A stretch of DNA of 64,000 nt from an uncultured Chloroflexia bacterium. Lineage in GTDB: Bacteria > Chloroflexota > Chloroflexia > QHBQ01 > JADMIH01. Under the pieces are notes generated by a model, which was not told where the DNA came from, searched no databases, and saw nothing but the letters and a program-made list of their open reading frames with translations. A program made the translations under genes and the position numbers. The DNA is taken from NCBI GenBank assembly GCA_963797095.1, contig CAWCNY010000006.1:704001-768000 (forward strand). The letters are read 5' to 3'. Every line of letters starts with the position of its first letter. Position 1 is the first letter of the stretch. Below, piece after piece: positions 5,357-26,092 of this stretch.

Positions 5357-5711
5357 CTTGAACCTCCTTTTCCAGAGTTGACTGCATTCGTTCGAAATCG
5401 TGGCTGGGAGAGCAAGGCCACACATACAAATAGCCCAACCGCATTGTCTGGCCGGTCAGGAGAGGTCCTTCATGACACATTAAGAATATCCTTACTTGGT
5501 TACAGCATTGGTGGAAGGAGGTGAATGACAGGTGTCAGGTTGCAGATGGCTAGCTCAGATAAAGAGAGGTGGTCGGGCAACATCTCTTCGTCTGATATCA
5601 ATCTGCAATCCCCTCCACTACAGAGGGCGAAAATATGTTCCAGATGTCTTGCCTTACCAAATGCCTTGTTATGGGGACAAACGGAAGATATAACAGATGC
5701 AACTGGAAGAC

Positions 5712-5744
5712 TTATCCACAAATAGTGCAAAAGAGGTTTATAAT
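5712..5744 (+). promoter_or_regulatory. DnaA box and -10 element upstream of ftsA
   Basis: TTATCCACA at 5712-5720; TATAAT at 5739-5744. Confidence 0.55.
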
Positions 5745-5862
5745 ATGCGGAAGCGGAGTAGAATGATCTCCCTAGCTCGACCCAGGAGGTACTGGGAGCC
5801 GATAGGGAGGCATGCTATAAACTGGCCGCAATGCATGACCCTTATCCATACCTGGCAAACCT

Positions 5863-7272: not shown

Positions 7273-7507
7273 GAACGTGATCGCGAGCATGGCCGCCAAA
7301 TTTTAACAATTTTAACAATTCGGCGGCCGTAGAGGTTGAAATGATTGGCGCTGATATTGTATTATCAGTCGTCGGCTCTATCGCATTCTTGCGATAGGGT
7401 CTTGAATTAGCTCAACTGTCGGTTCTCAGCACCGATATAGCGGCAGCCAGATCACTTTCCACACACCATCATATCGTGGCACTATCGGGGTAAGGAGGAG
7501 AATCGAG

Positions 7508-8881: not shown

Positions 8882-8900
8882 GTATAGATGGGACGAAAGT

Positions 8901-8931
8901 GAAGGACGAAGGTTACCCGCCTTCGTCCTTC
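8901..8931. terminator. Hairpin between convergent ftsZ and CGNR genes
   Basis: GAAGGACGAAGG-7 nt-CCTTCGTCCTTC, built from the AAGGACG heptamer. Confidence 0.65.
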
Positions 8932-8935
8932 GTGT

Positions 8936-9583
8936 TTATGCCTCTGTCAGTTTGCCTTGCACCTTTCGGCGATAGTAGCGGCGGGCCTTGGCAGTGTTGC
9001 CACAGTCTTTCATGTCGCACCAGCGGCGGCTGTGGTTCTTGCTCGTGTCTATGAACATCCAGCCGCAGGTATCGCCCGCGCATTCGTGTACCCTGGCAAG
9101 CTTATTCGATATCAGGAGATCGGCGGCTGACCTGGCGATAGGCCAGAGAATACGCTCCAGGTTGCCTTCAGCGCTCTCCCAGCCCCATTGATAGCCATCT
9201 TGCGTGTGTTCGACGCGAGCGTGACACATGGCTTCGGCTATGTGGCTGTTGAGCAGATCGAAACTGTGGGTTTCGGGTGGCAAGCCCTCTGATGCCGCCA
9301 GGAAGGTGCGCTGGATCGACTCGCGCAGCTCTTTTGCCCTCCGGAAGGCTGATTCGGTCTCCTGGGGCCGGTCCTCGGCCACCTTATCGAGCGCCTGTTG
9401 TTCTTCACGAGTTATTACACCCGCCTGGCGTGCCCAACTGAGAATATCGGCATAAGATTCGAAATAGTCGTAGGTCGGGTTGAGCTTGTCGATGTAGTTG
9501 CCTCTTGTGTTCACAAAATCGAGGCACAACGCCCCGCCGACCAGGTCGTAGGTGCGCTCTCGCTTTTCTTCCATAGTTGCCAT
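8936..9583 (-). CDS. ABATE/CGNR zinc-finger family putative transcription regulator
   Basis: GGALCLDFVNT; C-x4-C-G-W-x-F-x-D-x-SKN-x-SRRWC-x-M-x2-CGN-x-AK; GGAG RBS before ATG 9583. Confidence 0.9.
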   Translation of the reverse strand: MATMEEKRERTYDLVGGALCLDFVNTRGNYIDKLNPTYDYFESYADILSWARQAGVITREEQQALDKVAEDRPQETESAFRRAKELRESIQRTFLAASEGLPPETHSFDLLNSHIAEAMCHARVEHTQDGYQWGWESAEGNLERILWPIARSAADLLISNKLARVHECAGDTCGWMFIDTSKNHSRRWCDMKDCGNTAKARRYYRRKVQGKLTEA

Positions 9584-9606
9584 ATCTGTTGCTCCGAATA
9601 TCAATA

Positions 9607-9696
9607 TAACCTGCAAAAAAGCCTTGACAGGTTAGGAAATCTGTGATATAATCTAACCATCAAAACCATTATAGATGGTTAACTGTGAAAAGTCAA
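9607..9696. promoter_or_regulatory. Overlapping opposed sigma70 promoters with two TAACC-N18-GGTTA palindromes
   Basis: Plus strand TTGACA(9624)-17-TATAAT(9647); minus strand TTGACT(9696)-17-TATAAT(9673); palindromes at 9607-9634 and 9654-9681. Confidence 0.8.
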
Positions 9697-14521: not shown

Positions 14522-14719
14522 TCAGCCTGTGCCTACGATTTCTTCTGCGCAGATGTCGCAGTAGGGGGTGGTGGAGTTGGCTACTCGGATGCCGCAGTTC
14601 TGGCAGATGCGGTAGCCTTCTGACTTGCATTGGTCGCAGAGGACGGGGCCTTCGGCGTTTACAGGGCGACCACAGCGGATGCAGTGGTTGGTTTCGTTGG
14701 ATGGGTTTTCTGAGGGCAT
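14522..14719 (-). CDS. 65-aa double zinc-ribbon protein
   Basis: Four CxxC pairs (CIRC, CDQC, CQNC, CDIC); AAAGGA RBS. Confidence 0.7.
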   Translation of the reverse strand: MPSENPSNETNHCIRCGRPVNAEGPVLCDQCKSEGYRICQNCGIRVANSTTPYCDICAEEIVGTG

Positions 14720-14732
14720 TTGGGTCCTTTCT

Positions 14733-14815
14733 ATTGCGTACTGCGTATTTCTTATTGGGGCAGTTCTATATTGATGGGGTATACAGTACGCAATACGCAG
14801 TGCGCAGTACGCAGT
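14733..14815. repeat. Inverted pair of TACGCAG-type heptamer tracts
   Basis: TTGCGTA CTGCGTA near 14734 and (CAGTACG/CAATACG)x4 at 14784-14815. Confidence 0.8.
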
Positions 14816-14816
14816 C

Positions 14817-15854
14817 TTACCATTGGATCTTTACTACCAGGGCTGTTATATCGTCCTCGTGGGCGCGATAGTTGTATGTGGCTGAGATGTCGGCTGGGTC
14901 GGGGAGGGAGCGCTCAGCCGAGCGCTCGTCGCTGCGGTCTACCAGGGTGGCAGCCGGGTCTATGGAGTTCATTGAGGCGGCGATCTCGTCGGTGGTGAGG
15001 TTGGCGTAGACGCCGTCGCTGCAGAGGAGGAGACAGTCGCCTGGTTGAAGCTGGATGGTGCTGAACTCGGGGGTGGAGGCCTCGGCGGAGTCGCCTAACT
15101 GACCGAAAACGAGGTTGCGCTGGGCGAAATATTTGACGGCATCCGGATCGAGCTTACCGAGGTCGAAGCCGGTGAAGGTGTCAAGCTCGTTGTCTATGGT
15201 TTCGGCCTGTTCGGGAGTTAGCCTCCCCTCTATGCAATCGAGGTGGACGAGATCCTGGTCCTCGGTGAGGAGGAGAAGCTCGCCATCGGAGTAGAGGTAG
15301 CAGCGGGTGTCGCCGTTCTGGCTGATGACGGCGCGGCGTCCGCCTTCGCAGAGGATAGTGGCGGTGAGGCAGGCGGCGGCCATCACGTCGCCCGCGGTTT
15401 TGCCTTCGGGTATTTGTTCTGGGGGAATGTCGCCCCCGGCGTTGATCTCGTGGAAGACGCGGGCATCGCCCTGGGCTATGACGGCAGAAAGGATCTCGCG
15501 GGCGGCGGAAACGGAAACGTTGTTGGGAAGGTCCTGGAGACGGTCGTCGAGGGTAGCGCGAAGGATGGCGGCAGCGTGCTCACCACCGATCTCTTTGCCG
15601 TTGACTACGCGGCGGCTGCCACCCATGCCGTCTATGACCGCGTGGGCAAGGCCGTTGTGGGCCGACCAGTAGGCGTCCTCGTTGCGCTCAGGGTGAGCAC
15701 GGCTGGGGGTGGATTTTACCCAGATGCGGGCGATGGTGGACTGGGGGGGTTGGGTTGTGGGTGGGTCCATTTGGGTTTGTAGCCGGTAGCCGGTAGCCGG
15801 TAGTCGGTAGTCGGTAGCCGGTAGTCGGTAGCCGGTAGTCGGTAGTCGGAACAT
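14817..15854 (-). CDS. PP2C/PPM family protein Ser/Thr phosphatase
   Basis: NEDAY, IDGMGG, GDTRCY, LTED, LLCSDG and DDITALVV motifs; the N-terminus is encoded by a heptamer tract. Confidence 0.9.
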   Translation of the reverse strand: MFRLPTTGYRLPATDYRLPATGYRLQTQMDPPTTQPPQSTIARIWVKSTPSRAHPERNEDAYWSAHNGLAHAVIDGMGGSRRVVNGKEIGGEHAAAILRATLDDRLQDLPNNVSVSAAREILSAVIAQGDARVFHEINAGGDIPPEQIPEGKTAGDVMAAACLTATILCEGGRRAVISQNGDTRCYLYSDGELLLLTEDQDLVHLDCIEGRLTPEQAETIDNELDTFTGFDLGKLDPDAVKYFAQRNLVFGQLGDSAEASTPEFSTIQLQPGDCLLLCSDGVYANLTTDEIAASMNSIDPAATLVDRSDERSAERSLPDPADISATYNYRAHEDDITALVVKIQW

Positions 15855-15892
15855 TCTGTTGCTAGTCCTCCTACTACTGACTACCGACTACC
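15779..15892. repeat. (GTAGYCG)x10 tract with a short inverted partner tract
   Basis: Ten units at 15779-15848; CTACTGA CTACCGA CTACC at 15874-15892. Confidence 0.95.
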
Positions 15893-15900
15893 ATTGTTCT

Positions 15901-16608
15901 TCACGGTCTTGGTAGCAATTCGAGTACCAGATAGCTACCGGAGGCAGTGGGGGCGTTGTGCTGGTAGAAAGGTAAGGCGTCGGGGTCGCCCATGAATATC
16001 CGGTCGCCGGGTTCGAGGTCGTAGGAGGAGTCGGGGTTGGCGTTGCGGATTGTGCCGAAAGTCTCTAGCGGCGTGAAGGTGTTAGAACCAACTGGTTTGA
16101 CGAGGGTATCCAGTTCGGCTCCTGGGCAGGAGCGTATGGTGACGGCATTACCGGGGGTTAGGGATAGGTAGCACTGCTTGCGGTGAACGAGGTATTGCTT
16201 CTGGCCGTGGATGTCCATCGGCTGCACCCACTGGCGAAGGTCGATATCGGCCTGGCTGCCCAATTCGGCGTCGGTCCTGCCGACCATGTATTCGCCGGGT
16301 TGGGTGATGGTGAAGCCCTGGGCGGGGTCGGCTGTGCCCGATACGACGATGGCGAACTGGGCGCTACCGGCGGGTGCCGAGGTGCCCGATTGGGGAGGTG
16401 GGACGATACCGGATACGGGAGTGATGGTCGGGGCGGTATCGGGCGATGCAGTGCCGGAGGTAGCGGCGGGGTCGGTTGTGGGGGTCGCGGCGGGGTCTGT
16501 GGCCTGCTGAGCCTGGGCATCAATGGCATTTATGAAGTAGCCGCAGTTCTCGCAGAATTTGCCGATCTCCTGGTCGGGGGCTCCGCAATTTGGGCAGGTG
16601 ATTGTCAT
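15901..16608 (-). CDS. Zinc-ribbon plus divergent FHA-like domain protein
   Basis: CPNC..FCENCG; A/T/P-rich linker; VGR.D....DIDL; VHRKQC in place of VSR.H; L.PGDRI.MG. Confidence 0.7.
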   Translation of the reverse strand: MTITCPNCGAPDQEIGKFCENCGYFINAIDAQAQQATDPAATPTTDPAATSGTASPDTAPTITPVSGIVPPPQSGTSAPAGSAQFAIVVSGTADPAQGFTITQPGEYMVGRTDAELGSQADIDLRQWVQPMDIHGQKQYLVHRKQCYLSLTPGNAVTIRSCPGAELDTLVKPVGSNTFTPLETFGTIRNANPDSSYDLEPGDRIFMGDPDALPFYQHNAPTASGSYLVLELLPRP

Positions 16609-16623
16609 TGGTGTCTCCTGCGT

Positions 16624-16732
16624 TCGTGAATCGTGAAACTTGAAACGTGATACGCGACGACGAAAGACGAAGGACGATTATTACGAGTGACGAGTGACGA
16701 GTGAATACGCAATACGCAATACGCAATACGCA
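16624..16732. repeat. Mosaic heptamer tract
   Basis: CGTGAA-type units, then ACGAARG, then (ACGAGTG)x3, then (AATACGC)x4. Confidence 0.9.
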
Positions 16733-16749
16733 CTATCTCGCGTATCACT

Positions 16750-18096
16750 CTATGGTTTTGCTAAGGTCCATTGTTTGGTCACTGAGTCGTATTGCATTGT
16801 TCCCTGGAAGATCCATGTATATTGGCCTGTTTGGGGTGATTGGCCGAGGTGTTGGACGCTTACCGTAACGAGGGAGGTGTCGCCGTTGGCGTCGAAGGAC
16901 CAGTCGCCCAGGATGTTATCGCCGGGGAGTTTGGCGGTGCTGGTGTTGGCGACGGCCTGGCGGATGGCTTCGCGATCTTTCTTGTTGGCGGTGGCTATAG
17001 AGTTGACGGCTACTCTACCTGCCTCGTAGCCGAATGGTGCCCAGTCTTCGTTGCAGTCGTTTGGATACTGAGACTTGTAGCTGCTGTACCAATCTGCGCC
17101 CGCACCGGTTAGGCGAGCGGCGGGGAGACCCACGATGGTGGCATAGACCTTATCATCGTCTTCGAGGCCGGCATTGCGCAGGTTGTTGATGAATGTATCG
17201 CCCAGGGCGTCGGCCCCCATGAAGGAGCCATCGTAGCCTAGGGAGCGCAGGTCGCGGAAGACCAGGTCGGGGTGGTTGGCGTCGCTGCCGCCGAAATAGA
17301 CGAGGTCGGCACCGGAGTCGATGATGCGGTTGGCAAGCTGAGTGTAGCTCTCGGCGTGGATGTCTATGCTTTCGGGACCGCCCGCGACGGTGAGGCCGAG
17401 GTTACCGGCTTCGCGGGCGAAGACCTTGGCTATGCCTTTGCCGTATAGCTCGGTGTCGTCGAGGACGAACACCGATTTAGCGCCGATCTCGCGGGCGTAG
17501 GCGGCGGCAGCCGCGCCCTGGAGGTCGTCGGCTGGCACCACGCGGAAGTAGTTGCGGGTGCCGAGGGGATAGTAGATGTATGGCTCGCCTGCGCTGCCTG
17601 TGCCTGGCTTGGTGAGGCCGGGGTAGGTGTTGCCGGGGCTGATCATTGCCATGCTGACGCGGTTGAGCACTGGTATGCTGATCTTGGCCGCGCCTGAGTT
17701 GTAGGTGCCTATATAGACCATCGCATCGGGGTCTTCGACGGCGCGGCGGGCGTTGGCAAGCTCTACATCGGGGTCCCAGTTATAGGAGCCATCGGCACGT
17801 GCGACGGCGTCGTTGAGGGGAACATACTCGATGCGAAAGTCTCCGGCGTGGTCGTTGGCTTCATCAATCGCCATTTGAGCACCATGAACGATACTGTCGT
17901 AGCCGCAGCGGTCCTTGCTGCCGAAATTGCCCGAAAGGGGGACGGACGCGTAGATACGTACCAGCGATGGATCGCCGGAGCTACCCTGCCCGAAGACAGG
18001 GCTGAGGACGAGAAATGTGATTATGCCGAGCACGAGAGCAACGAGGACGGGGACGATTACCTCGACGGTGTTCAGGGTCAGGTTTCTTGGACGCAT
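16750..18096 (-). CDS. Membrane-anchored LivJ/LivK-type (class I) amino-acid substrate-binding protein, orphan
   Basis: PLSG, IGTYNSG, ISP.NT.P.LT, YFRV...DD.QG, D...YGKGIA, FMGAD and FDANGD motifs; no permease or ATPase nearby. Confidence 0.88.
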   Translation of the reverse strand: MRPRNLTLNTVEVIVPVLVALVLGIITFLVLSPVFGQGSSGDPSLVRIYASVPLSGNFGSKDRCGYDSIVHGAQMAIDEANDHAGDFRIEYVPLNDAVARADGSYNWDPDVELANARRAVEDPDAMVYIGTYNSGAAKISIPVLNRVSMAMISPGNTYPGLTKPGTGSAGEPYIYYPLGTRNYFRVVPADDLQGAAAAAYAREIGAKSVFVLDDTELYGKGIAKVFAREAGNLGLTVAGGPESIDIHAESYTQLANRIIDSGADLVYFGGSDANHPDLVFRDLRSLGYDGSFMGADALGDTFINNLRNAGLEDDDKVYATIVGLPAARLTGAGADWYSSYKSQYPNDCNEDWAPFGYEAGRVAVNSIATANKKDREAIRQAVANTSTAKLPGDNILGDWSFDANGDTSLVTVSVQHLGQSPQTGQYTWIFQGTMQYDSVTKQWTLAKP

Positions 18097-18360
18097 TTGT
18101 GAGTATTTTGGAATTCGGAATCCGGAGTTCGGAGTTATCGGGTTGAGGTTCGAAGTTACGCTAGTTCAGTGTTGGTGTAACCTTTGCACAATGTGACCAC
18201 GTAGTTTCATATAGTGAGGTTACGTTTGAGCGCACTGAGAGTTAGGTCGAAGGGGGTTTCGATTGTGCGTGGCAGTGGAACTGAGTATACTATAAGCCAG
18301 CCGACGGTACAACAGCAATGCCCAGGCAGAGATTTCGCGTGAGGATGTGGATATTGAGGT

Positions 18361-20868
18361 ATGGCTAAGAGTAAGGCTACACATGCTAAGAAGGTTGAGT
18401 GTCCGACTTGTCACGAACATGTGGTGCCGGACAACGGATATTGCCCGAATTGCGGATCACCTATAGAGGTTAAGGCCGATGGATCTGTGGCCGCGCCTTC
18501 AGGCTCCAGCACGGCTGCGTCAGCCGATGCGGCTGGTGCCGGGACCGTGACTTGCCCTGTTTGCGGCACGCAGAACAAGGCCGGTGAGGAGTACTGCACC
18601 AATTGCGGCGCGCCGCTGGCGGCTGTGCTGGGTGGGAATGGTGCCGGCGCGGCGGCTGGTACGGCGTCAGCGGGGGGAATAGGGCAGGCGATCGAGTGCT
18701 CGGTGTGTGGGAGCGAGATCCAGGCGGGCGAGGAGTATTGCCCGAATTGTGGCGCGCCACGAAGCGCGTCTACCGCTCTTGCGTCGCCTGATGGAAAGTC
18801 GGCGGATGGAGCGCAGGGCGATGGGCAACCGCTTGTTTGCCCGAATTGTGGCGCGCCCCTGAGGCCGGGGGCCAAGTTCTGCCGTGAGTGCGGGCAGCGT
18901 TTTACGGGGCTGCCGACCGACAAGGGTACGCCCGCAGCAGAGCGTGGGTTGCAGGTCGGGCAGATCCTGGCCGGGCGGTACAAGCTGGTATCGGTGATCG
19001 GCGGCGGCGGCATGGGTATGGTGTTCAAGGCGTTCGACCTGAACCTGAAGACGCGGCAGGAGCCTGAGGGGAGGCCGGCGGCGGTGAAGGCGATCCTGAA
19101 CACAAGCGACCCCGAATTGCTGGCACAGGCGGTGGACGAGCGCGAGATGTTGATCCGTCTGGATCACCCGAATATTGTGCGCATTTACGATATTGTGCAG
19201 GATAAGGGCGTTCCTTATATAGTGATGGGGTTCGTGAAGGGGACCAGCTGGAAAGAGATGTACGACCAGAACGGGGGGCCGCTGCCTGAGGGAGAGGCGC
19301 TGAGGCTGCTGCTGGGGATACGTGGGGCGTTCGAGTATTTGCATGGCAGGACGCCTCCGGTGGTGTACCGCGACTTCAAGCCCGGCAACGTGATCCAGGT
19401 GGACGAGGGGAACGGCAGGGTGCGACAGGTGCTGATCGACCTGGGAACGGCGATGGAGTATTTTCCAGGCCAGAAGCGCGAAGCGTGGGGCACTGTTGGG
19501 TTCGCGCCGCCTGAGATCGGTGGGATTTGCGAGCAGCCACCCTCGATGGACTTGTTTGCTATCGTAAGCACGCTGGCGGCGCTGCTGGGGGTGGACGTGA
19601 GCAACCAGGGGATCGGGGCACCCCCCAGGAACGAGTGGCCCGTGTCGCCTGAGATCTATGATTTCGTGGCGCGGGGGCGTGATGCAGACCCGCGCGTGCG
19701 CTTCCAGACTGTGACCGAGTTGTTCGACCAGTTGGAGGGAATAGAGCGGTTCATCAGGGGACAGGAGCGGGCACGGCTGGCGGGCAAAGGCACGATGAGC
19801 GGGCACGGCACAAGCCCGCTGACAGGGTCGCTGGTGCCAGTGCAGAGCACGATCATCACGGGACGGCTTACCTCAACGGTGCAGGGGACGACGGGGAGGA
19901 TCAGCGCGCTGCCTGCTCTAAGCTCGGCGGATCCTGCCGGGCAGATGTTGCAGGAGGCGCGGGATTTGATGTCGGCGGCGCGTTACCCTGAGGCGTTGCA
20001 GCAGATCGATGCGGCGCTGAAGATGCACCCGGCCAGTATCGACGGCTATTTGCTGCGAGCGGCGGCGTTGAACAACATGGGGCAGGTGGATGCTGCTAAG
20101 GAGTTGCTGGCGCAGGCCGACAGGTTGAGCACCCCCGCGACGCGCTGGCGCACGCTGCTGGTGGACGCACAGGCGGCTGAAGCGGCTGGTGACTATAAGA
20201 AGTCGGAGACGCTGTTCGGGGACCTGATTAAGCTGGTGCCGGGTGAGGTGCTGCCGAAGCAGGCGCTGGCCGATATTTACCGTCAAACGGGAAGGTATCA
20301 GCAGGCCGCCGAGTTGTACGGGCGGGTGGTGGCGGCGGACCCTGCGAACGCCGACGCGGTGCTTGGATGGGCCGATAGCCTGGTGGCGTTGAACCATACG
20401 AACGATGCTATCAGTGTGCTTGATGCGGTGAACGAGAACGCGCTCCGGTTCGTGGACGCGCAGTTGCGACTTATCGAGTTGTACCTGGCGAGGATCGATG
20501 CTTACCTGAGCAAGCAGTGGCGTGTATTGCGCGGCCTTGGGCAGAACAACCCCGATTTGCAGGCTTTGTGGGGCGACCTGGGGTTGGCAGGGAGGGCTAT
20601 TGCGGGGTTGAACGATAGGACGGAGTTGACTCACTATTACAGGTTGCAGGCCGATTGGTGGTACGCGGCATACAGGCTATCGAAGGCGGGCAAGCTGCCG
20701 CCCAATTTGGAGTGGCCCGACAGGCGTCCGCACAAAGCGGACAACCCCGAAGAGATCGGAGAGGCGTGCCGGGAAGCGTACAAGCGCTATTTGCAGCGCT
20801 CCCCCGACGCGGTGGATAGAGAGGATGTGTTGGCCCGGATTTACTTCGATGTGGAGGAGTGGCAATGA
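18361..20868 (+). CDS. PknG-like Ser/Thr protein kinase with four N-terminal zinc ribbons and C-terminal TPRs
   Basis: Eight CxxC; GGGGMG.V, AVK, YRDFKPGN, LIDLG and GTVGFAPPE motifs; DPA and PGEVLPKQALA in the TPR region resemble PknG. Confidence 0.9.
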   Translation: MAKSKATHAKKVECPTCHEHVVPDNGYCPNCGSPIEVKADGSVAAPSGSSTAASADAAGAGTVTCPVCGTQNKAGEEYCTNCGAPLAAVLGGNGAGAAAGTASAGGIGQAIECSVCGSEIQAGEEYCPNCGAPRSASTALASPDGKSADGAQGDGQPLVCPNCGAPLRPGAKFCRECGQRFTGLPTDKGTPAAERGLQVGQILAGRYKLVSVIGGGGMGMVFKAFDLNLKTRQEPEGRPAAVKAILNTSDPELLAQAVDEREMLIRLDHPNIVRIYDIVQDKGVPYIVMGFVKGTSWKEMYDQNGGPLPEGEALRLLLGIRGAFEYLHGRTPPVVYRDFKPGNVIQVDEGNGRVRQVLIDLGTAMEYFPGQKREAWGTVGFAPPEIGGICEQPPSMDLFAIVSTLAALLGVDVSNQGIGAPPRNEWPVSPEIYDFVARGRDADPRVRFQTVTELFDQLEGIERFIRGQERARLAGKGTMSGHGTSPLTGSLVPVQSTIITGRLTSTVQGTTGRISALPALSSADPAGQMLQEARDLMSAARYPEALQQIDAALKMHPASIDGYLLRAAALNNMGQVDAAKELLAQADRLSTPATRWRTLLVDAQAAEAAGDYKKSETLFGDLIKLVPGEVLPKQALADIYRQTGRYQQAAELYGRVVAADPANADAVLGWADSLVALNHTNDAISVLDAVNENALRFVDAQLRLIELYLARIDAYLSKQWRVLRGLGQNNPDLQALWGDLGLAGRAIAGLNDRTELTHYYRLQADWWYAAYRLSKAGKLPPNLEWPDRRPHKADNPEEIGEACREAYKRYLQRSPDAVDREDVLARIYFDVEEWQ

Positions 20869-20911
20869 GTTGTGGTGAGTAAGTATATGGTGAAACGAAG
20901 CAACAACGTGG

Positions 20912-21025
20912 TTGTCATCCTGAGCGAAGCGAAGGATCTCGCTCCTCGCGAATACCTTTTGGCGTGGCGCTCTCTCAAAGCGTGATCTTGGGGATCGAGA
21001 TCCTTCGCTTCGCTCAGGATGACAA
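20912..21025. repeat. REP-like palindrome with 30-bp perfect arms
   Basis: TTGTCATCCTGAGCGAAGCGAAGGATCTCG at 20912-20941 and its exact reverse complement at 20996-21025. Confidence 0.95.
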
Positions 21026-21110
21026 AGGCGACGGGGTGGCTTTGACGAACATTTGCCTTATCAGCGAGCCTTTGTTGAGGACAACGAAGGTTGATGGGAG
21101 AGTTCACTGG

Positions 21111-21401
21111 ATGATGAAGTATTACGTTTACATCATGTCCAATCAATCGCGAACGATTTATGTTGGAGTAACCAATCATCTGGAACGTCGTGTATACGAG
21201 CATAAGCAGAAACTGATTGAGGGGTTCGCAAGCCAGTACAATGTCACCAGGTTAGTATGGTTTGCTGAGACTGAGGATGTGCGTGATGCTATTGCGCGAG
21301 AGAAGGGGATCAAAGGTTGGCTCAGGGCTAGGAAGAAGGCTTTGATTGAGGAAATGAACCCTGGGTGGGAGGATCTTAGCACTGCATGGTTCACTAGATG
21401 A
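21111..21401 (+). CDS. Small GIY-YIG nuclease (UPF0213/YhbQ-like)
   Basis: YYVYIM...TIYVGVTN.LERRVYEH and AI.REK.IKGW.R.RK..LI...NP.W.DL motifs; GGGAG RBS. Confidence 0.92.
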   Translation: MMKYYVYIMSNQSRTIYVGVTNHLERRVYEHKQKLIEGFASQYNVTRLVWFAETEDVRDAIAREKGIKGWLRARKKALIEEMNPGWEDLSTAWFTR

Positions 21402-21500
21402 CACCCCTTCGTGGGTAGGTCATGCTGGAAGTGTATGGGGCTTTACGCCTGGTGGGTCGGCTTTTGCCTGGGTAGTTGTCGATGCTTGATCAGTAGAGAG

Positions 21501-21530
21501 CGAGATCCTTCGCTTTGCTCAGGATGACAA
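21501..21530. repeat. Third copy of the palindrome arm
   Basis: CGAGATCCTTCGCTTTGCTCAGGATGACAA, one mismatch to 20996-21025. Confidence 0.9.
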
Positions 21531-21616
21531 AAGAACAATGGTGGCTTTCCTAATAGAATTTCGGGACTCGGATATTGAATAGAGGCGAGGCTAAGACGTT
21601 TTGGTGAGGAGAAAGA

Positions 21617-22921
21617 GTGATGGTGAAGTTTAGAGTGACGCCGCACCCGGCTGAGGCGCAGGTTTTGCAGGGGCAGAATATGGCCCGCGTTATGTATGAT
21701 GTGGGGGCCGACGCTAGCGCGGGGCCTTCGGGGCCGGGGGCTGTGCCTGTCTTCCTTAGCGTGGTGCTTGACCAGTCGGGGAGCATGGAGGGGCAGAAAC
21801 TGTACGCCGCCAAAGAGGCGTTGTTGCGGTTGCTGCACCAGGTGCCTTCGAACGATAGAGTGATAATACAAATCACGTTGTTCAGCGATGATGCGCAGGA
21901 GTTCCTCGCGCCTATTTCAGGGACGGATTTACAGAAGCGGATGGAGCCTGTTTCGAGAGATGTCCAGAATATCGCCGCCGGCGGAGCTACGTCGCTTGGG
22001 AGCGGGTTGCGGGTGGCGTTGCGCGCCTCGCGGCCCTATTCAGAGTATGCTCGGCGCGTGTTGATGATCACCGACGGCAAGCAGGAGGGCACTCTCCCTG
22101 TTAGCGATGCTTACAAGGCAGCCAACGAGCTTGCCTCCGCGGGGATCAGAGTCGATGCCTGGGGCGTGGGCAACGGCTGGGAGGCCGACCAGTTGCGCAC
22201 CATCGCGCACAACACCGGGGGAGAGGCCGATGCTTTGCCCGATGCTTTCGGCCTGGTCGATGCCGTGACGCAATTGTTCTCTGACGTTCAGAGCACAAAG
22301 GCCAGCAACGTGCGCCTGGTGCTGAACACCCCCGTTGGCACGCTGATCAAGAGCGTGCGGCAGGTCTACCCGTCGGTGCAGGATAGAGCGGCACAGATGA
22401 TAAACGATCAGAAGTGGGTTATACCTATCGGGGCGTTGACCCAGGAAGAGCCCAAGTTTGTCATCGAATTGGAGACCACGCCAAGGGGAAACAACATACC
22501 ATTCCGCATCCTGGTGCCGACGGTGCTCTATAACCTGGGGAGCGAGGAGTTCGCGGATGAACTGGATAGGTCAGCGTGGTTCTTCGTGAGATGGGTAGGA
22601 TCGCCGGGCGAAGTGAAGATGGACGACCAGTTGACGCGCTTCACCGGAGAGGAGGAGATCGCCAGCCTGTCTCAAGAGGGTTTCGCACTGCTTGAGGTGG
22701 GCGCGGTGGACGAGGCTACCGCCAAGCTGAGCGCGGCGCTCACCAAGGCTGTGCAGATCAACAGCCCACAGGCGGTGGTGTTAAGCGCCGTTGTGAACCC
22801 GAAGACAGGGCGACTGGTGAGCACCAACGCCAGCGACGCGATCAACAAGACAGGCAAACTGCATACCGGTAAGACAGGAAGGATCATTTCGAGCACGGGC
22901 AAACTGCCAGGACCACAATAA
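21617..22921 (+). CDS. von Willebrand factor A domain protein
   Basis: MIDAS residues LDQSGSM, GAT and ITDG; C-terminal TG[RK][LI] repeats. Confidence 0.9.
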   Translation: MMVKFRVTPHPAEAQVLQGQNMARVMYDVGADASAGPSGPGAVPVFLSVVLDQSGSMEGQKLYAAKEALLRLLHQVPSNDRVIIQITLFSDDAQEFLAPISGTDLQKRMEPVSRDVQNIAAGGATSLGSGLRVALRASRPYSEYARRVLMITDGKQEGTLPVSDAYKAANELASAGIRVDAWGVGNGWEADQLRTIAHNTGGEADALPDAFGLVDAVTQLFSDVQSTKASNVRLVLNTPVGTLIKSVRQVYPSVQDRAAQMINDQKWVIPIGALTQEEPKFVIELETTPRGNNIPFRILVPTVLYNLGSEEFADELDRSAWFFVRWVGSPGEVKMDDQLTRFTGEEEIASLSQEGFALLEVGAVDEATAKLSAALTKAVQINSPQAVVLSAVVNPKTGRLVSTNASDAINKTGKLHTGKTGRIISSTGKLPGPQ

Positions 22922-23039
22922 TTTTAGATTTTAGATTGCGGATTGAATAGCTCCAATTCCCGCAAATGGCTTCGGCGCTGACTAAGGCGAAGCTAAGAAA
23001 GATAGATCCGAAATCCGCAATCTAGAATCCGCAATCAAA
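22921..23039. repeat. Inverted pair of ATTTTAG/ATTGCGG heptamer tracts
   Basis: ATTTTAG ATTTTAG ATTGCGG, then AATCCGC AATCTAG AATCCGC. Confidence 0.8.
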
Positions 23040-23056
23040 GAGGGGGGTTTGGTTTA

Positions 23057-23866
23057 GTGATCACTTTAGATGAGTTGAGGCGGCTGGCTAACAGCGTTGG
23101 CATGGAGAGGCTGGTGATAGTGGGCGGTGCCGTGAGCGGTATCGCTATACTTGTGCTGCTGATCGGCTGGCTGCTGATCGGTTTTTGGGCGGGGTTGCTG
23201 GGGGCATTGGTGGTGCTGGTCGGTTTCTACTTGTCTCTACGGAATATCCTGGCGAGATTGGCGGGTGGAGCGACGTTAGGGGCGACCGGTGCGCCCACCG
23301 TGCGGATCGACTTGAGCAAATTACAGGGGAACGAGCGCGCGTATGTGCGGCGGGCGTTGGATAGGCGGGCCAGTATCGAGCAGGCGGTAGCGGGTGCGGG
23401 CGACCCCGGTGTGAAGCGGGCGCTTGTTGATGCCACGCGGGATTTGCCGGAACTTGTGCAGACGATCTATGAGCTGGCGTTGAAGTCGCAGGGCGTGGGG
23501 GATGCGTTGCGCTCATCGGGCACGATGGTGAGTTTAATACAGGATACACAGCGGCTTGACGCGCTGATCAAGTCGACAACAGACGAGTTTCAGAAGAGCC
23601 AGTACCGGGCCACACTGGACGGCAAGTTGCAGCAGATGCAGAATATGACGGATACCGAGGTTGCGCTCAAGCGATGGGACGCTCAACTGGGCAACGCGCT
23701 TGGCACGCTCGATACTATCCTGTCGCAGGTGCTGAGGATATCTTCATCGCAGGTGCTATCTTATACTGGGGAGACGGCTGACGACCTGTCGACCACCCTC
23801 AAGCGCGAGGTGGAGGAGTTGAAGGCCACTTCGGATGCGTTCGATAGCGTATACGGGCGGACATAA
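23057..23866 (+). CDS. Two-TM membrane protein with a helical/coiled-coil C-terminal domain
   Basis: Hydrophobic hairpin followed by heptad-rich helices; co-oriented with the vWA gene. Confidence 0.7.
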   Translation: MITLDELRRLANSVGMERLVIVGGAVSGIAILVLLIGWLLIGFWAGLLGALVVLVGFYLSLRNILARLAGGATLGATGAPTVRIDLSKLQGNERAYVRRALDRRASIEQAVAGAGDPGVKRALVDATRDLPELVQTIYELALKSQGVGDALRSSGTMVSLIQDTQRLDALIKSTTDEFQKSQYRATLDGKLQQMQNMTDTEVALKRWDAQLGNALGTLDTILSQVLRISSSQVLSYTGETADDLSTTLKREVEELKATSDAFDSVYGRT

Positions 23867-23969
23867 GGGACGGCGAAGGGCGAAGGACGATGACAGGTGA
23901 GTGCTGCATGAGTTGTGGTGCTCATGAGTTGTGGTGCTAAGGTGCAATCATGGAAGGCATCAGAGATAG

Positions 23970-24545
23970 GTGAGAGAAATGGCAGTACAAATCGGACGGC
24001 GATTGTTTACCATAGATGAGTTCGAGAAGATGATCAGCGATGGCATTCTTAAAGAAGATGAGCGTGTCGAGTTAATTAGAGGTGAGATCATCGATATGGG
24101 CCCGATCAAGCATCCGCACGCAGCCTGCGTGGCAATCTTGGAATTCCTGTTGGGAGAGAAACTTGGTAGGAGAGCATATGTTTGGGGGCAGAATCCGATA
24201 TGGTTCGATGATAGGAATCGCCCACAGCCGGATGTAGCTTTGTTGAAGTGGCGGGGTGATTTCTACCAGCGGAAACGACCAGGCGCGGAGGATGTGCTTT
24301 TGATTATCGAGGTCGCGGATACGTCTTTGCGGCACGACAGGCGTGATAAATCCACCTTATATGCGGAGGCAGGCATACCCGAATATTGGATCGCCAATAT
24401 CAAAGAACGAGTGGTTGAGGTCTTTTCAGAGCCTGTCAACGGTACGTATCAGAAGACCTGGACGGCAAAGGCGGGCGACACAATATCTCTGCCGGGCGAT
24501 TTGCAGGCAGAGATAGACGTTAGCGAGATATTCGACATAGAGTGA
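23970..24545 (+). CDS. Uma2 family (DUF820) putative endonuclease
   Basis: ERVELI.GEI, PQPD and IEVADTSL..D...K..LYA.AGIPEYWI motifs. Confidence 0.92.
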   Translation: MREMAVQIGRRLFTIDEFEKMISDGILKEDERVELIRGEIIDMGPIKHPHAACVAILEFLLGEKLGRRAYVWGQNPIWFDDRNRPQPDVALLKWRGDFYQRKRPGAEDVLLIIEVADTSLRHDRRDKSTLYAEAGIPEYWIANIKERVVEVFSEPVNGTYQKTWTAKAGDTISLPGDLQAEIDVSEIFDIE

Positions 24546-24549
24546 GAAT

Positions 24550-25990
24550 ATGGCAACAGTAGCAATTGGAAACAGTACCGGTGCGGCTCCGCAGGCCGTG
24601 GCGGCTCGTGGTGTTAGAAGCAACTCGCGAGTTGGGCGGCTGCGGTCGTGGATGCTGGCTATCGTGGCGGCTTCGGTGTCGTTCAGTTTGCTTGCCGGAT
24701 TTATATCCTGGCAGGCCAACCTGGTGACCTACGACAACTACCGTAAAATCGTGGATGAGGGATCGGTAAGCGTCGACTCGGCGTTGCGGGCGAGAGCCGC
24801 TGTGCTGGACCACATGAGCGCGGCGGCTACCTATCTTGAGACGACAGGGGCAAACCAGCCGGCGGCGGAGGAACGGGCGCGCGAGCGGTGGGCGGCTTTC
24901 AGCGACGAGGCGAGGCGGTCGTGGCAGAACCTGACCGACAGGAACTCATGGCGAGTACGCGGTATACTCGGCGGCGGACTCGGCGGCGAGCGACTATATC
25001 CAACAGATCGGGGCGATGTTCTCGTATTACCAGGCCGGAGAGGCCAATAGGGCGGGCGATGCCTTCCTTGAGGCGCGTGAAATATTGAATACGCGTTTGG
25101 TGCCTGCTCTGGGCGGTCTGGAAGCTGTCAAAGTTGAGGACATGGAGACGACCTACGCTGGCGCGGCGGAAACGATCTCAGGCTGGACTACAGCGCTGAC
25201 CTGGGGAGCGTTGGTGCTGGTCCTGATACTGGCAGCGGGGTTGCTGGCGATCAGGAGAATGCACTACCGGTGGTCATGGCCGGTGGGAGCGGCGCTTGTG
25301 GTGTGCGCGGCACTGGCTGGCCTGATGCTGTTTCAGTTGAACCAGGCGCGGAATGATGCGCGTGTGATGGTACGCGAGGCGTATGACAGCATAGCGGGTG
25401 TGCAGGACATGGCGGCGAACCTCAGCCAGGGGCGCGCGCTGGAGAGTATCGCCATATTCGACCCGGACCAGGCGGCTTCCCACCTCGGAGATTTCGACCA
25501 GTATATGGAGTTGGTGGAACAGAGGCTGTGCGGGCCTCGCGATTGCACGGCCAACACATTCCTTTCGGGAGGTGACCAGATCAGCGCGGCGGTCAGCGCG
25601 GCGGCGGTGGACGAGAAGAACAGGCTGGGTCTGGCTAGGTTGCCTCTGGTGGCGAACGTGACATTTCCAGGTCAGGCGGCTGCCTACGAACAGTTCCGCG
25701 TGAATTACAGGAAGTGGCTCGATGCGCATGCAACTTTGGCGCAACAGGTAGAGGCGCGGCAACTGGCCGCGGCATCCCAGACCTCAACGGGCGACAGCGC
25801 CTCGGCGTTCGCCGACGTTGTGGCGAGCGTGGACGCCGCTGGGCAGGTGGCACGCGCCGAGTATGACAAGATCTGGCAGGGCGTATACAGGACGACCACC
25901 ATCAACCAGGCGTTGGCCCTCGCCTTCCCATTGATGGGGTTGATCGGCGCATGGGGCGTGTGGGTCAGGCGTAGTGAGTTGTTTGCGTGA
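24550..25990 (+). CDS. GlnX-like membrane protein with two helical extracytoplasmic domains, split by a +1 frameshift near 24944
   Basis: Removing one A at 24944-24945 joins ORFs 24550 and 25016 into about 479 aa with a TM-helical-TM-TM-helical-TM layout. Confidence 0.6.
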
Positions 25991-26092
25991 GACGAGGAAG
26001 GACGACGAGTGACGAGTGACGAGTGATACGCAGTACGCAGTACGGACTCCGGGCGACTGACAACCATTAACTTTCGTCTTTCGTCTTTCGTC
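25991..26092. repeat. Mosaic heptamer tracts
   Basis: (GACGAGT)x3, TACGCAG units, then (TTTCGTC)x3 at 26072-26092. Confidence 0.85.

Follow-up and report, generated by a model that had tools for sequence, protein, structure and literature searches.

A divergent PknG-GlnX-type gene cluster with a candidate class I receptor in an uncultured Chloroflexia bacterium

Introduction

The studied role of the protein kinase PknG is metabolic sensing, according to the part of PMC9769921 available to us, and the same part gives the topology of GlnX as four transmembrane (TM) helices and two helical bundles. The accessible portion of Lisa et al. 2021 (PMC8546545) mentions a Chloroflexi homologue of PknG, in Ktedonobacter, so the statement of the initial annotation of this DNA, that no description in Chloroflexota was known, has to be amended. 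Related components also occur in the TerY-P triad, which is defined, in the section of PMC11090510 that we could use, as a TerY-like vWA protein, a PP2C phosphatase and a kinase with a fused Zn ribbon; the available text of PMC7159879 also notes the theme of a Zn-ribbon kinase with PP2C and a standalone vWA protein. We describe here a Chloroflexota gene cluster that is distant kin of the amino-acid-sensing PknG pathway of actinobacteria and that differs from it in its putative receptor protein.

Results

Gene content and conservation of the cluster

The cluster lies at positions 14522-25990 of the window (the whole stretch of 64,000 nucleotides that was analysed) and is made up of two divergent gene runs, one on the minus and one on the plus strand. 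ORF coordinates and Pfam matches place the eight genes of these two runs where the initial annotation had put them; it had overlooked two further ORFs, which encode GIY-YIG and Uma2 domains. The features are as follows.

14522-14719, minus strand: double Zn-ribbon protein of 65 aa with four CxxC motifs (Pfam DZR_2 1.8e-5, below the cut-off)
14817-15770 (ORF to 15854), minus strand: PP2C Ser/Thr phosphatase (PP2C_2 2.3e-8, SpoIIE 8.1e-7)
15901-16608, minus strand: protein with an N-terminal Zn ribbon (DZR 0.002), a linker rich in Pro, Ala and Thr, and a divergent FHA-like domain
16750-18096, minus strand: solute-binding protein of class I (LivJ type), anchored to the membrane at its N-terminus (Peripla_BP_6 1.2e-26)
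18097-18360: divergent spacer of 264 bp between the binding-protein and kinase genes, with a 7-nt repeat at 18110-18133
18361-20868, plus strand: PknG-like Ser/Thr kinase of 835 aa (Pkinase 1.6e-25, PknG_TPR 5.1e-18)
20964-21401, plus strand: GIY-YIG nuclease-domain ORF (GIY-YIG 1.1e-15), an interloper between the kinase and vWA genes
21617-22921, plus strand: vWA protein whose MIDAS start is intact (VWA 1.5e-16)
23057-23866, plus strand: 2-TM protein whose cytoplasmic domain is helical (no Pfam match)
23970-24545, plus strand: Uma2-family endonuclease ORF (Uma2 2.9e-34), an interloper between the 2-TM and 4-TM genes
24550-25990, plus strand: GlnX-like 4-TM sensor gene, broken into the frames 24550-25050 and 25016-25990

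The gene arrangement is not due to chance. The cluster is syntenic in all eight relatives fetched, as far as their contigs extend, and an Ardenticatenaceae locus has the kinase, vWA and sensor genes in the same order. Among 41 related genomes the kinase and sensor genes are both present in 25, the kinase alone in one, the sensor alone in none and neither in 15; thus the two occur together in 25 of the 26 genomes that hold either. Within the genus the distribution is patchy, eight of 24 genomes being without both genes (three of these genomes are 85-91% complete).

The kinase belongs to a PknG-like clade

The kinase has eight CxxC motifs, which make up four Zn ribbons, followed by a catalytic domain with the motifs YRDFKPGN and DLG and then by a PknG-type TPR domain; it has no strongly scoring membrane segment. 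Among solved structures, PknG of M. tuberculosis is closest (2pzi, E 1.5e-38), and the alignment, over residues 159-704, takes in the Zn-ribbon, kinase and TPR regions, pairing 'lidlg' with LIDLG of PknG and 'lvpgevlpkqala' with the PknG TPR. The motifs and this alignment confirm the PknG hallmarks recognized earlier, namely the CxxC domain, the DLG and the TPR tail. The Pfam PknG_TPR match scores 65.4 bits against a cut-off of 27, spans profile positions 46-240 of 340 only, and is the sole match to that family in the genome.

In an IQ-TREE phylogeny of 66 kinase domains, a PknG-like clade of 38 rows that includes this kinase is split from 28 other Ser/Thr kinases with support of 100/99. The actinobacterial PknGs fall in another group of this clade, to which the kinase is sister. 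Its proposed grouping with PknG stands, and neither the tree, nor the comparison of the 4-TM protein with GlnX (below), nor co-occurrence in other genomes refuted the initial reading of the locus.

The 4-TM protein is a distant homologue of GlnX

The sensor matches the NCBIfam model NF058618 ("GlnX family") with E 2.3e-16 and 59.9 bits, below that model's curated cut-off of 250, and hhalign aligns it over its full length with six actinobacterial GlnX proteins (E 1.9e-6) at a probability of 89.6, which is not above 95. With the Chloroflexota sensor HMM alone, no actinobacterial GlnX came up at E <= 10. A search of 1.84 billion proteins with the Chloroflexota sensor profile reached GlnX-family proteins at 1e-10 to 1e-4, with which the sensor aligns in full length at a probability of 99.85; a profile of those matches in turn found the gene upstream of pknG in six of six actinobacterial loci (1e-23 to 1e-57), and one of these six proteins passes the GlnX equivalog cut-off (1.1e-253). 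The structural model (pLDDT 93.5) has four TM helices and two periplasmic four-helix bundles, the topology published for GlnX. Thus the GlnX likeness claimed for the 4-TM protein holds up, as a distant relationship. In structure comparisons its first bundle resembles four-helix-bundle sensor domains (Z 17.3), the best match being 5xsd, XylFII with the LytS N-domain.

A single extra base splits the sensor gene

Relative to all five relatives aligned, the sensor gene has one extra base near 24943-24946; the relatives' sensor is a single open frame of 452-527 aa, and intact orthologues with 452-505 aa are among them. The insertion may mean that the module is off in this strain, or it may be an assembly indel error. 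The GIY-YIG and Uma2 ORFs were found in none of the eight relatives' clusters and are interlopers, and the GIY-YIG ORF (regional G+C 0.525; one 60%-identical relative elsewhere in the genome) stands outside the system. The Uma2 ORF resembles the PADLOC candidate family PDC-S03 (3.1e-17). One may ask whether the module of this strain is decaying, its sensor truly truncated, its cluster invaded by selfish nuclease genes and its signalling lost. The split gene, the two nuclease ORFs found in this cluster only of the nine compared, and the dispensability indicated by the eight genus genomes without the module all favor such decay, but both halves of the sensor are still open and 71-77% identical to the relatives with no other stop, and the remaining cluster genes are all intact. 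Moreover, the extra base sits in a short run of GGAA, a plausible place for an indel error of the assembly, and the sole public contig found stops at 24923, short of the insertion site. On balance, decay is a possibility that we regard as doubtful.

The class I binding protein is a candidate receptor

Among solved proteins, the binding protein is most like those that bind amino acids and Leu/Ile/Val (3.8e-9 to 4.1e-6), and a hydrophobic segment covers its residues 5-39. The initial annotation had it take the place of GlnH, and several observations agree with this. The binding-protein gene adjoins the kinase gene in all seven relatives' loci that extend that far, which belong to two families of the order. 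The Ardenticatenaceae locus has a binding-protein fragment upstream of its kinase gene. There is no LivH/M-type permease gene (BPD_transp_2) on the 1.06-Mb contig that carries it, the 12 matches in the genome all being on other contigs, unlike the situation of three other Peripla_BP_6 genes of the genome, which have permease genes within a few kb. Finally, the co-fold with the GlnX-like sensor that had been suggested passed its controls, with ipSAE values of 0.69, 0.73 and 0.69 against 0.00 for the best of three controls; partner pLDDT was at least 88 and the runs shared at least 80% of contacts. These co-folds used self-built alignments, and 58 of 80 solved complexes attain the mark applied, as do two of 110 mismatched pairs. 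The predicted sensor interface is enriched in invariant residues (15 of 27, against 92 of 310 other periplasmic residues), and that of the binding protein is not (12 of 22, against 157 of 382).

The kinase-sensor module could be real and the binding protein nevertheless have another role, the GlnX-like bundles binding the signal directly or through an unlinked partner. Many four-helix-bundle sensor domains do bind their signal directly, and the first bundle superposes on domains of chemoreceptors and histidine kinases that do so, such as those of PcaY, Tsr, Tar and McpN (Z 11.8-16.9); the describers of GlnX matched its second domain to CHASE3 and raised direct sensing (in the portion of PMC9769921 at hand). 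In addition, none of 27 loci of other phyla holds a binding-protein homologue, so the receptor step would be lineage-specific; the co-fold may owe its pass to the solved XylFII-LytS N-domain complex (5xsd), and the binding-protein side of the interface has no special conservation. Against this stand the retention of the gene beside the kinase, the missing permease, the margin of the co-fold over its controls and the enriched sensor interface, and we think it unlikely that the binding protein is not the receptor. The replacement of GlnH by a class I protein is a proposal that has gained support from linkage and modelling, and the contact itself is a prediction.

Related modules in other phyla

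GlnX-family sensors of Cyanobacteria, Acidobacteriota and Armatimonadota adjoin genes for PknG, Zn-ribbon PP2C, vWA and Zn-ribbon FHA proteins, which is a new observation. Among the 27 loci with GlnX-family genes in other phyla, a vWA gene is upstream in 23 and a PknG-like kinase gene in 18; by Pfam annotation, a Waterburya and a Chthonomonadaceae locus have PknG, Zn-ribbon PP2C, vWA, Zn-ribbon FHA and GlnX. Homologues of the vWA protein are present in four of six actinobacterial pknG loci, and a Streptomyces locus runs glnX ... pknG, vWA, FHA. This makes the Chloroflexota cluster one member, divergent and rearranged, of a PknG-GlnX module that spans several phyla, with a candidate class I receptor as an addition. 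PP2C, vWA and FHA partners are present as first noted, but they are not a peculiarity of Chloroflexota: other phyla have them alongside PknG and GlnX too. The kinase domains of Cyanobacteria, Acidobacteriota and Armatimonadota group in a single short-branched clade, a pattern that suggests transfer between phyla.

Partner proteins

The 65-aa protein has its CxxC motifs at residues 13, 28, 39 and 54, and a homologue lies downstream of PP2C in two of the eight relatives' loci. The PP2C protein contains a DGMGG motif and matches NCBIfam Stp1/IreP at 4.1e-19, below the cut-off. The first 28 codons of its ORF cross a 7-nt tandem repeat (GTAGCCG x10, 15779-15849, by TRF), and relatives align from residue 24-43 on only; the likely start, judged from these sequences, is Met29 at 15770.

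The protein at 15901-16608 has no Pfam FHA match, and its model has a pLDDT of 64.3, with one of five models above 42. FHA domains fill the best five Foldseek rows from the PDB (E 5.7e-3 to 1.2e-2, probability 0.95-1.0). In its alignment with the canonical Zn-ribbon FHA proteins of cyanobacterial and Armatimonadota clusters the GR is invariant, but where these have V-S-x-R-H-A this protein reads V-H-R-K-Q-C. The Ser and His of the FHA SxxH contact phosphothreonine, and both are replaced here; the FHA assignment is weak.

The vWA protein has its DxSxS at residue 52 (DQSGS), and its C-terminus is extended by about 230 aa. The 2-TM protein, with a hydrophobic stretch at residues 14-69, is encoded in six of the eight relatives' clusters and missing from both loci of one family; an atlas lead connects it to the Rv2743c family (score 0.93). 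A paralogue of its gene adjoins genes for PspA and another class I binding protein.

Discussion

We consider it probable that the genes of this locus make up a PknG-GlnX-type module for transmembrane signalling by Ser/Thr phosphorylation, which would work as a five-step relay. The membrane-anchored class I binding protein would capture an extracellular small molecule, probably amino-acid-like, and would then dock at the membrane-distal tip of the sensor's first periplasmic four-helix bundle. From the sensor, the signal may travel by way of the short cytoplasmic loop and the conserved 8-residue C-terminal tail to the kinase's TPR domain. The soluble kinase would then phosphorylate threonines of partner proteins; the candidate substrates are the vWA protein and the Zn-ribbon/FHA-like protein, the latter in its Thr-rich linker. 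PP2C would reset the switch. The data establish the gene content, the kinship of the kinase and the sensor with PknG and GlnX, the conservation of the linkage and the fold of the sensor; the relay built on them is proposed.

It is quite improbable, in our judgment, that the core is instead a TerY-P-like phosphorylation switch (vWA, PP2C and Zn-ribbon kinase) for stress or conflict, for example anti-phage defense, in which envelope damage, and not a nutrient, would be what the 4-TM protein perceives, and the binding protein would have no part in the input. The gene set does match the triad of PMC11090510 and the theme of PMC7159879, as far as the available parts of these papers define them. Zn ribbons sit on the kinase and the FHA protein (and on PP2C in other phyla), the module is accessory in the genus, the short-branched kinase clade suggests inter-phylum transfer, nuclease ORFs lie within the cluster (Uma2 being like PDC-S03), and the 2-TM protein leads to a PspA-partner family and has its paralogue near PspA. 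However, no effector-like domain (nuclease, protease or pore) is conserved in the cluster, and PADLOC, which we presume to hold TerY-P models, gave no match for the vWA, FHA-like, binding and sensor proteins, a match of only 0.0023, to a candidate family, for PP2C, and only generic kinase models for the kinase. The PknG-GlnX-type reading is favored further by the grouping of the kinase with PknG, whose studied role is metabolic (PMC9769921, in the part available), and by a binding protein that is conserved, stands without a transporter partner and passed the co-fold with the sensor.

Organization of the cluster and its conservation in relatives

The source genome is a Chloroflexota genome of 6.0 Mb in 8 contigs. 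The initial annotation had described two divergent gene runs in this part of the window, and ORF listing with Pfam searches confirmed them; two further ORFs that it had overlooked lie among the cluster genes.

Features of the cluster (window coordinates)
14522-14719, minus strand, 65-aa protein with four CxxC motifs (ORF listing and Pfam)
14817-15854, minus strand, PP2C phosphatase (ORF listing and Pfam)
15901-16608, minus strand, FHA-like protein: N-terminal Zn ribbon, Pro/Ala/Thr-rich linker and conserved C-terminal domain
16750-18096, minus strand, Peripla_BP_6 binding protein (1.2e-26) with an N-terminal hydrophobic anchor
18361-20868, plus strand, kinase of 835 aa
20964-21401, plus strand, GIY-YIG ORF, overlooked earlier, between cluster genes
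21617-22921, plus strand, vWA protein whose MIDAS motif begins DQSGS
23057-23866, plus strand, 2-TM protein
23970-24545, plus strand, Uma2 endonuclease ORF, overlooked earlier, matching PADLOC candidate family PDC-S03
24550-25050 and 25016-25990, plus strand, helical membrane-protein (sensor) gene in two frames
14784-14815, 15779-15849, 15873-15892, 16625-16732, 18110-18133, 22921-23036, 23872-23890 and 26004-26092, heptanucleotide arrays

The neighbourhood of the binding-protein gene also includes genes for a glycosyltransferase, an uncharacterised protein, a luciferase-like enzyme and a flavin oxidoreductase. Relative to all five of the relatives aligned, the sensor gene has one additional base near 24943-24946, which splits it; in relatives the sensor is a single frame of 452-527 aa. 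Among public reads, one soil-metagenome run with 0.14 of the words yielded a single contig covering 24773-24923, which stops short of this site and bears on neither the indel nor the habitat. Judged from the sequence, the gene may be broken in the source genome, and eight intact Chloroflexota orthologues (alignment A1) stood in for it in our analyses.

Orthologous clusters were compared at eight loci from two families of the same order. The kinase, the vWA protein and both halves of the sensor are present at 8/8 of these loci, and the binding protein at 7/8, the eighth contig ending inside the kinase gene. The FHA-like protein (6/8) and the PP2C (5/8) are missing only from loci that end before those genes; the 2-TM protein (6/8) is missing in one family (f3), and the small Zn-ribbon protein is found at 2/8 loci. 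Neither the GIY-YIG nor the Uma2 ORF was found in the clusters of the eight relatives. On a wider scale, the co-occurrence of kinase and sensor genes, a check named by the initial annotation, was borne out: among 41 related genomes the sensor is present in 25 and the kinase TPR in 26, with both in 25, the kinase alone in one (a fragmented genome), the sensor alone in none and neither in 15, the last including 8 of the 24 genomes of the genus. At an Ardenticatenaceae locus the order is binding-protein fragment, kinase, vWA, a 171-aa protein and sensor.

Several side observations were made on these genes. Elsewhere in the source genome the GIY-YIG ORF has one more relative and the Uma2 ORF about six. 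Short tandem arrays of differing heptanucleotides, 2.4-10 copies each, fill the intergenic spacers of the cluster, an arrangement reminiscent of cyanobacterial STRR repeats. A "YRLPATx" repeat at the N-terminal end of the PP2C ORF, considered as a phospho-acceptor motif, was rejected, being the translation of one of these 7-nt arrays, 5' of the likely start. The sole paralogue of the 2-TM protein in the source genome (48% identity) lies on another contig (locus L151, G000:C4:702000-717000, 4475-9631) in a run of genes for PspA/IM30, SBP_bac_11, a small membrane protein, the 2-TM paralogue, a Peripla_BP_6 protein with an overlapping start and a divergent ANTAR response regulator. This neighbourhood hints at a functional tie of the 2-TM family to class I binding proteins, to the Psp envelope-stress system or to both, and it fits an atlas lead connecting the 2-TM protein to the Rv2743c family.

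The kinase is PknG-like in a broad sense

The closest solved relative of the kinase is Mycobacterium tuberculosis PknG (2pzi, E 1.5e-38, residues 159-704), followed by Corynebacterium glutamicum PknG, and the alignment to 2pzi spans the last Zn ribbon, the catalytic domain and the TPR region. Its match to PknG_TPR (PF16918; 5.1e-18, 65.4 bits against a cut-off of 27, profile positions 46-240 of 340) is the only one in the source genome. The kinase motifs GGGGMG, YRDFKPGN and DLG are intact. In PknG the rubredoxin-like domain consists of two CxxCG motifs before the kinase domain and is missing in Corynebacterium; here the Zn module has four Zn ribbons (eight CxxC), the last of which aligns to the rubredoxin region of 2pzi, and the rubredoxin family PF16919 is absent among the best 25 of 30 families listed by the Pfam search.

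A phylogeny of 66 kinase domains was inferred with IQ-TREE. This order contributes 8 of them, the Ardenticatenaceae type 7, Cyanobacteria, Acidobacteriota and Armatimonadota together 17, and actinobacterial PknGs encoded beside glnX 6; the remaining 28 are other kinases, the nearest non-PknG matches. The tree covers 7 of 14 Ardenticatenaceae-type proteins and roughly half of the other kinases, and omits the kinases of loci L021 and L025, which are cut by contig ends. The 38 PknG-like rows separate from the 28 other kinases with support of 100/99, in agreement with the initial assignment of this kinase to the PknG clade. Within that group the 15 Chloroflexota rows (100/98) form the sister group of the other 23, which are actinobacterial, cyanobacterial, acidobacterial and from Armatimonadota (99/97); since the Chloroflexota rows lie outside the group that holds the studied PknGs, they are PknG-like only in a broad sense. 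The kinase domains from Cyanobacteria, Acidobacteriota and Armatimonadota (L023-L047) form one clade (100/100), and its short internal branches suggest recent transfer of the whole module between phyla.

The membrane protein is a divergent GlnX-like sensor

A profile of the A1 orthologues, run against 1.84 billion representative sequences, gave 120 matches at E <= 1e-3, which fall into three tiers: close matches, others at 1e-39 to 1e-26, and proteins of 440-540 aa at 1e-10 to 1e-4. One member of this last tier led to 27 loci (11 from Cyanobacteria, 10 from Acidobacteriota, 5 from Armatimonadota and one from an "Actinomycetota" MAG). The distant matches are mostly named "hypothetical protein", one of them "CHASE3 domain sensor protein", and the nearest atlas clusters are labelled PF28326 "Sensor_actino". 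A profile of the distant tier (A3) in turn matches a 438-516-aa ORF upstream of pknG at 6/6 actinobacterial loci (1e-23 to 1e-57), and one of these six ORFs scores 1.1e-253 on the NCBIfam GlnX equivalog. Plain HMMER with the Chloroflexota profile found 0/6 of the actinobacterial GlnX proteins. By hhalign, the sensor aligns end to end over 383 columns with the six GlnX proteins from beside pknG (probability 89.6, E 1.9e-6) and with the intermediate A3 family at probability 99.85 (E 7.8e-31).

On the GlnX-family models (NF058618 / NF041460, cut-off 250) the Chloroflexota orthologues fall below the cut-off, at 59.9, 51.5 and 31.9 bits (E 2.3e-16 to 7.9e-8); cyanobacterial and Armatimonadota proteins pass that of NF058618 at 303 and 292 bits, and an actinobacterial control, at 468.7 bits, also satisfies the equivalog model. 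Of 151 Chloroflexota genomes drawn, 5 gave an NF058618 match at E <= 1e-5 and none gave one above the cut-off. Pfam gave nothing better than 0.003 on the sensor proteins, with 4HB_MCP_1 in 4/8 members. One of the five matching genomes of that draw (locus L150, G260:C15) has a GlnX-family match of 234.7 bits, just below the cut-off, and no kinase match within the 17.9 kb covered.

An AlphaFold model of the sensor from a 54-row alignment (pLDDT 93.5, pTM 0.86) places two helical bundles in the periplasm and has four TM helices, with 6 residues in the cytoplasmic loop and about 8 in the short tail. Its helices span 39-110, 113-139, 148-174 and 178-249, followed by 256-316, 318-339, 388-414, 418-468 and 471-491. 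This topology is the experimentally supported one for GlnX, as given in PMC9769921. Foldseek with the full model found no PDB match at E <= 0.001, and a wide VIA-align search was needed for structural matches; there the first bundle superposes on four-helix-bundle sensor domains, best of all on the LytS N-domain of the XylFII-LytS complex (5xsd; Z 17.3, rmsd 1.4 A, 120/121 residues), and a NasR structure covers both bundles (Z 17.1). All three sensor alignments have a basic tail ending R-x-S-E-[Y/L] after TM4; this conserved tail, like the loop between TM2 and TM3, is conspicuous across phyla. The full-length hhalign homology, four TM helices and two bundles uphold the initial description of this protein as GlnX-like, with scores below the family cut-off.

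Related gene sets in other phyla

In 23 of the 27 loci from other phyla the GlnX-family gene has a vWA homologue upstream, and 18 of the 27 have a PknG-like kinase. Three of the four loci lacking the vWA gene have fewer than 500 bases of upstream sequence; the fourth, L022, has 5.4 kb and no match. By Pfam, a Waterburya locus encodes PknG (rubredoxin, kinase and PknG_TPR, 3.6e-69), a GNAT protein, a Zn-ribbon PP2C, an uncharacterised ORF, a vWA protein (VWA_3 and VWA_3_C), a Zn-ribbon FHA protein (6.1e-14) and, as the last gene, the GlnX-family sensor; the set at a Chthonomonadaceae locus differs in lacking GNAT.

Actinomycetota were reached through a Micromonospora kinase, as the "Actinomycetota MAG" locus (L031) did not lead to typical actinobacteria; strong PknG_TPR matches occur in only 3/61 genomes drawn from the phylum of L031. 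In an 81-genome Actinomycetota draw PknG_TPR was found at E <= 1e-20 in 5, a count that says little because small genomes dominate the draw. At four Streptomyces-type loci (L139-L142) a vWA homologue (VWA_3 and VWA_3_C) lies downstream of pknG, and in Streptomyces sp. NBC_01537 (L139, 1262-11147) glnX is followed at a distance by pknG, the vWA gene (VWA_3_C 9.2e-24) and an FHA protein (3.1e-15). The locus with the GlnX equivalog has an SBP_bac_3 GlnH between glnX and pknG, and no vWA match.

These findings support the view that the locus belongs to a PknG-GlnX module found in several phyla, of which it is a Chloroflexota version that has diverged and been rearranged. More tentatively, and at slightly worse than an even chance, we propose that an old, horizontally mobile module of five genes (PknG-type kinase, PP2C, MIDAS vWA, Zn-ribbon FHA and GlnX sensor) spans at least five phyla, that the mycobacterial and corynebacterial GlnH-GlnX-PknG-GarA pathway is its pared-down derivative, that vWA and FHA proteins are partners of PknG, and that in the Chloroflexota a class I binding protein, docking at the tip of the first sensor bundle, was recruited independently. 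If so, Streptomyces would still keep the vWA and FHA genes behind pknG, and their products would be unrecognised partners in PknG signalling.

PknG orthologues are described as mostly confined to Actinobacteria by Lisa et al. 2021 (PMC8546545). The literature within our scope, which took in few subscription journals and no supplements, yielded no description of GlnX homologues outside Actinobacteria, nor of vWA, FHA or PP2C partners in or outside them. The 2026 NCBIfam GlnX-family model and automatic "PknG" names at JGI indicate that curators and pipelines already recognise parts of the system.

A likely receptor for the sensor

The nearest solved relatives of the binding protein are amino-acid and Leu/Ile/Val-binding proteins. 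All 12 matches to LivH/M-type permeases (BPD_transp_2) in the genome fall on contigs C3, C4, C5 and C8 and none on the cluster's contig, C6, and three other Peripla_BP_6 genes of the genome adjoin permease genes. The initial annotation had put a class I protein in the place of GlnH; the gene adjoins the kinase gene and no SBP_bac_3 GlnH is present, and the protein's contact with the sensor is a co-folding prediction.

Residues 40-443 of one relative's binding protein were co-folded with residues 45-492 of its sensor, using our own alignments. Three runs gave ipSAE of 0.69, 0.73 and 0.69 against 0.00 in three controls, with partner pLDDT >= 88 and at least 80% of contacts common to the runs; the mark is reached by 58/80 solved complexes and 2/110 mismatched pairs, counts that are rough since own alignments were used here. 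The predicted interface consists of the tip of the first sensor bundle (145-158 and 193-209) with touches from the second bundle. Invariant residues make up 15/27 of the sensor's interface positions vs 92/310 of its other periplasmic positions (odds ratio 3.0, p 0.009, overstated as the sequences are kin), and the binding-protein side shows no enrichment in invariant residues. The co-folding result may mirror the likeness to XylFII-LytS-N, because that complex is solved and is the best structural match. No binding-protein homologue was found in the 27 loci of other phyla. The receptor of the sensor is likely a class I binding protein specific to this lineage. It would dock on the tip of the first four-helix bundle, and the sensor, which has no enzymatic domain, would hand the signal to a separate Ser/Thr kinase.

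The FHA-like protein

Pfam gave no FHA match in the Chloroflexota FHA-like protein. Its structural model is mediocre (pLDDT 64.3); in Foldseek, FHA domains take all five top rows (E from 5.7e-3) and most of the list. Compared with canonical Zn-ribbon FHA proteins it keeps GR, has V-H-R-K-Q-C for V-S-x-R-H-A and carries an 11-residue insert. The phosphothreonine-binding residues that define the GarA/OdhI-type FHA family we take to be the canonical V-S-x-R-H-A/SxxH, and GarA and OdhI have an N-terminal phospho-acceptor Thr motif and no Zn ribbon. Considered as a GarA/OdhI-type substrate, the Chloroflexota protein has no canonical FHA domain and its N-terminus is a Zn ribbon.

Comparison with known signalling systems

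With the GlnH-GlnX-PknG-GarA/OdhI pathway (PMC9769921 and PMC8546545) the cluster shares a soluble kinase that combines a Zn module with DLG and a TPR of PknG type; a sensor in which four TM helices carry two bundles in the periplasm and the C-terminal tail is short and basic; an adjacent extracytoplasmic solute-binding protein; and an FHA-type partner. It differs in having a class I Peripla_BP_6 protein rather than SBP_bac_3 (as at the actinobacterial locus L138), four Zn ribbons rather than one rubredoxin domain, a Zn ribbon and no canonical SxxH in the FHA-like protein, PP2C, vWA and 2-TM genes in the cluster, and a divergent arrangement instead of glnX-glnH-pknG; sequence similarity is low, with the sensor under the family cut-off. 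The clusters of Cyanobacteria, Acidobacteriota and Armatimonadota have the same five protein types in the order kinase, vWA, sensor (with other genes between), and their vWA proteins are homologous to the Chloroflexota one over about 390 residues (1e-17 to 1e-27). Those clusters, however, lie on a single strand and have PknG_rubred, PknG_TPR matches of 1e-58 to 1e-69, a canonical FHA domain (6e-14) and no linked binding protein, whereas the Chloroflexota version is much more divergent and includes the class I binding protein.

The TerY-P triad of vWA, PP2C and Zn-ribbon Ser/Thr kinase has the same three-protein composition with recurring Zn ribbons (PMC11090510); the present kinase differs in being PknG-type with a TPR, and a GlnX-type sensor and FHA-like protein are added. 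A PADLOC library that may be without TerY-P models gave no match for the vWA, FHA-like, binding or sensor proteins, a PP2C match of 0.0023 to PDC-M21C and generic matches for the kinase, so that filing the cluster under known defence systems finds no support. In the type VI secretion proteins PpkA/PppA/Fha1 a kinase, a PP2C, an FHA protein and a vWA domain act together at the membrane; there the vWA is itself part of the kinase, as a domain in the periplasm, and the output is assembly of the secretion system. The Chloroflexota cluster has no secretion genes beside it. In XylFII-LytS and TorT-TorS a periplasmic binding protein with no transporter docks on a helical-bundle sensor domain (PMC6321045); these sensors are histidine kinases, whereas the present one has no enzymatic domain.

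Periplasmic signal transfer from GlnX to PknG is still termed uncharacterised in the abstract of a 2026 preprint (10.64898/2026.07.02.735984). The Chloroflexota cluster adds another lineage of the sensor-kinase pair, highly divergent and accompanied by a binding protein of another class, and thus an independent system in which to locate the docking surface and the cytoplasmic relay, together with a high-confidence sensor model. In Cyanobacteria, Acidobacteriota, Armatimonadota, Chloroflexota and a Streptomyces, PknG and GlnX genes are recurrently tied to genes for vWA, Zn-ribbon FHA and PP2C proteins, which points to partners invisible to corynebacterial and mycobacterial work, and the role of PknG outside Actinobacteria becomes approachable by experiment in non-pathogenic hosts. 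We consider the main value to lie in the partner set common to several phyla and in a receptor-sensor interface that can be tested.

Base composition around the cluster

From 10000 to 33000 of the window (23 kb), plus-strand GC skew is +0.11 to +0.37 in each 1-kb bin, independent of gene orientation, and outside this block it is about 0. On the coding strand, minus-strand genes have a third-codon skew of -0.55 to -0.62 and plus-strand genes one of +0.18 to +0.40. Across the source genome |skew| >= 0.15 occurs in 219/1202 5-kb bins, in runs of 5-50 kb of both signs; in the orthologous region of relatives the skew is +0.12, +0.07 or about 0. Among lineage-specific changes, losses of plus-strand C predominate (C>T 69 vs G>A 22; C>G 51 vs G>C 13).
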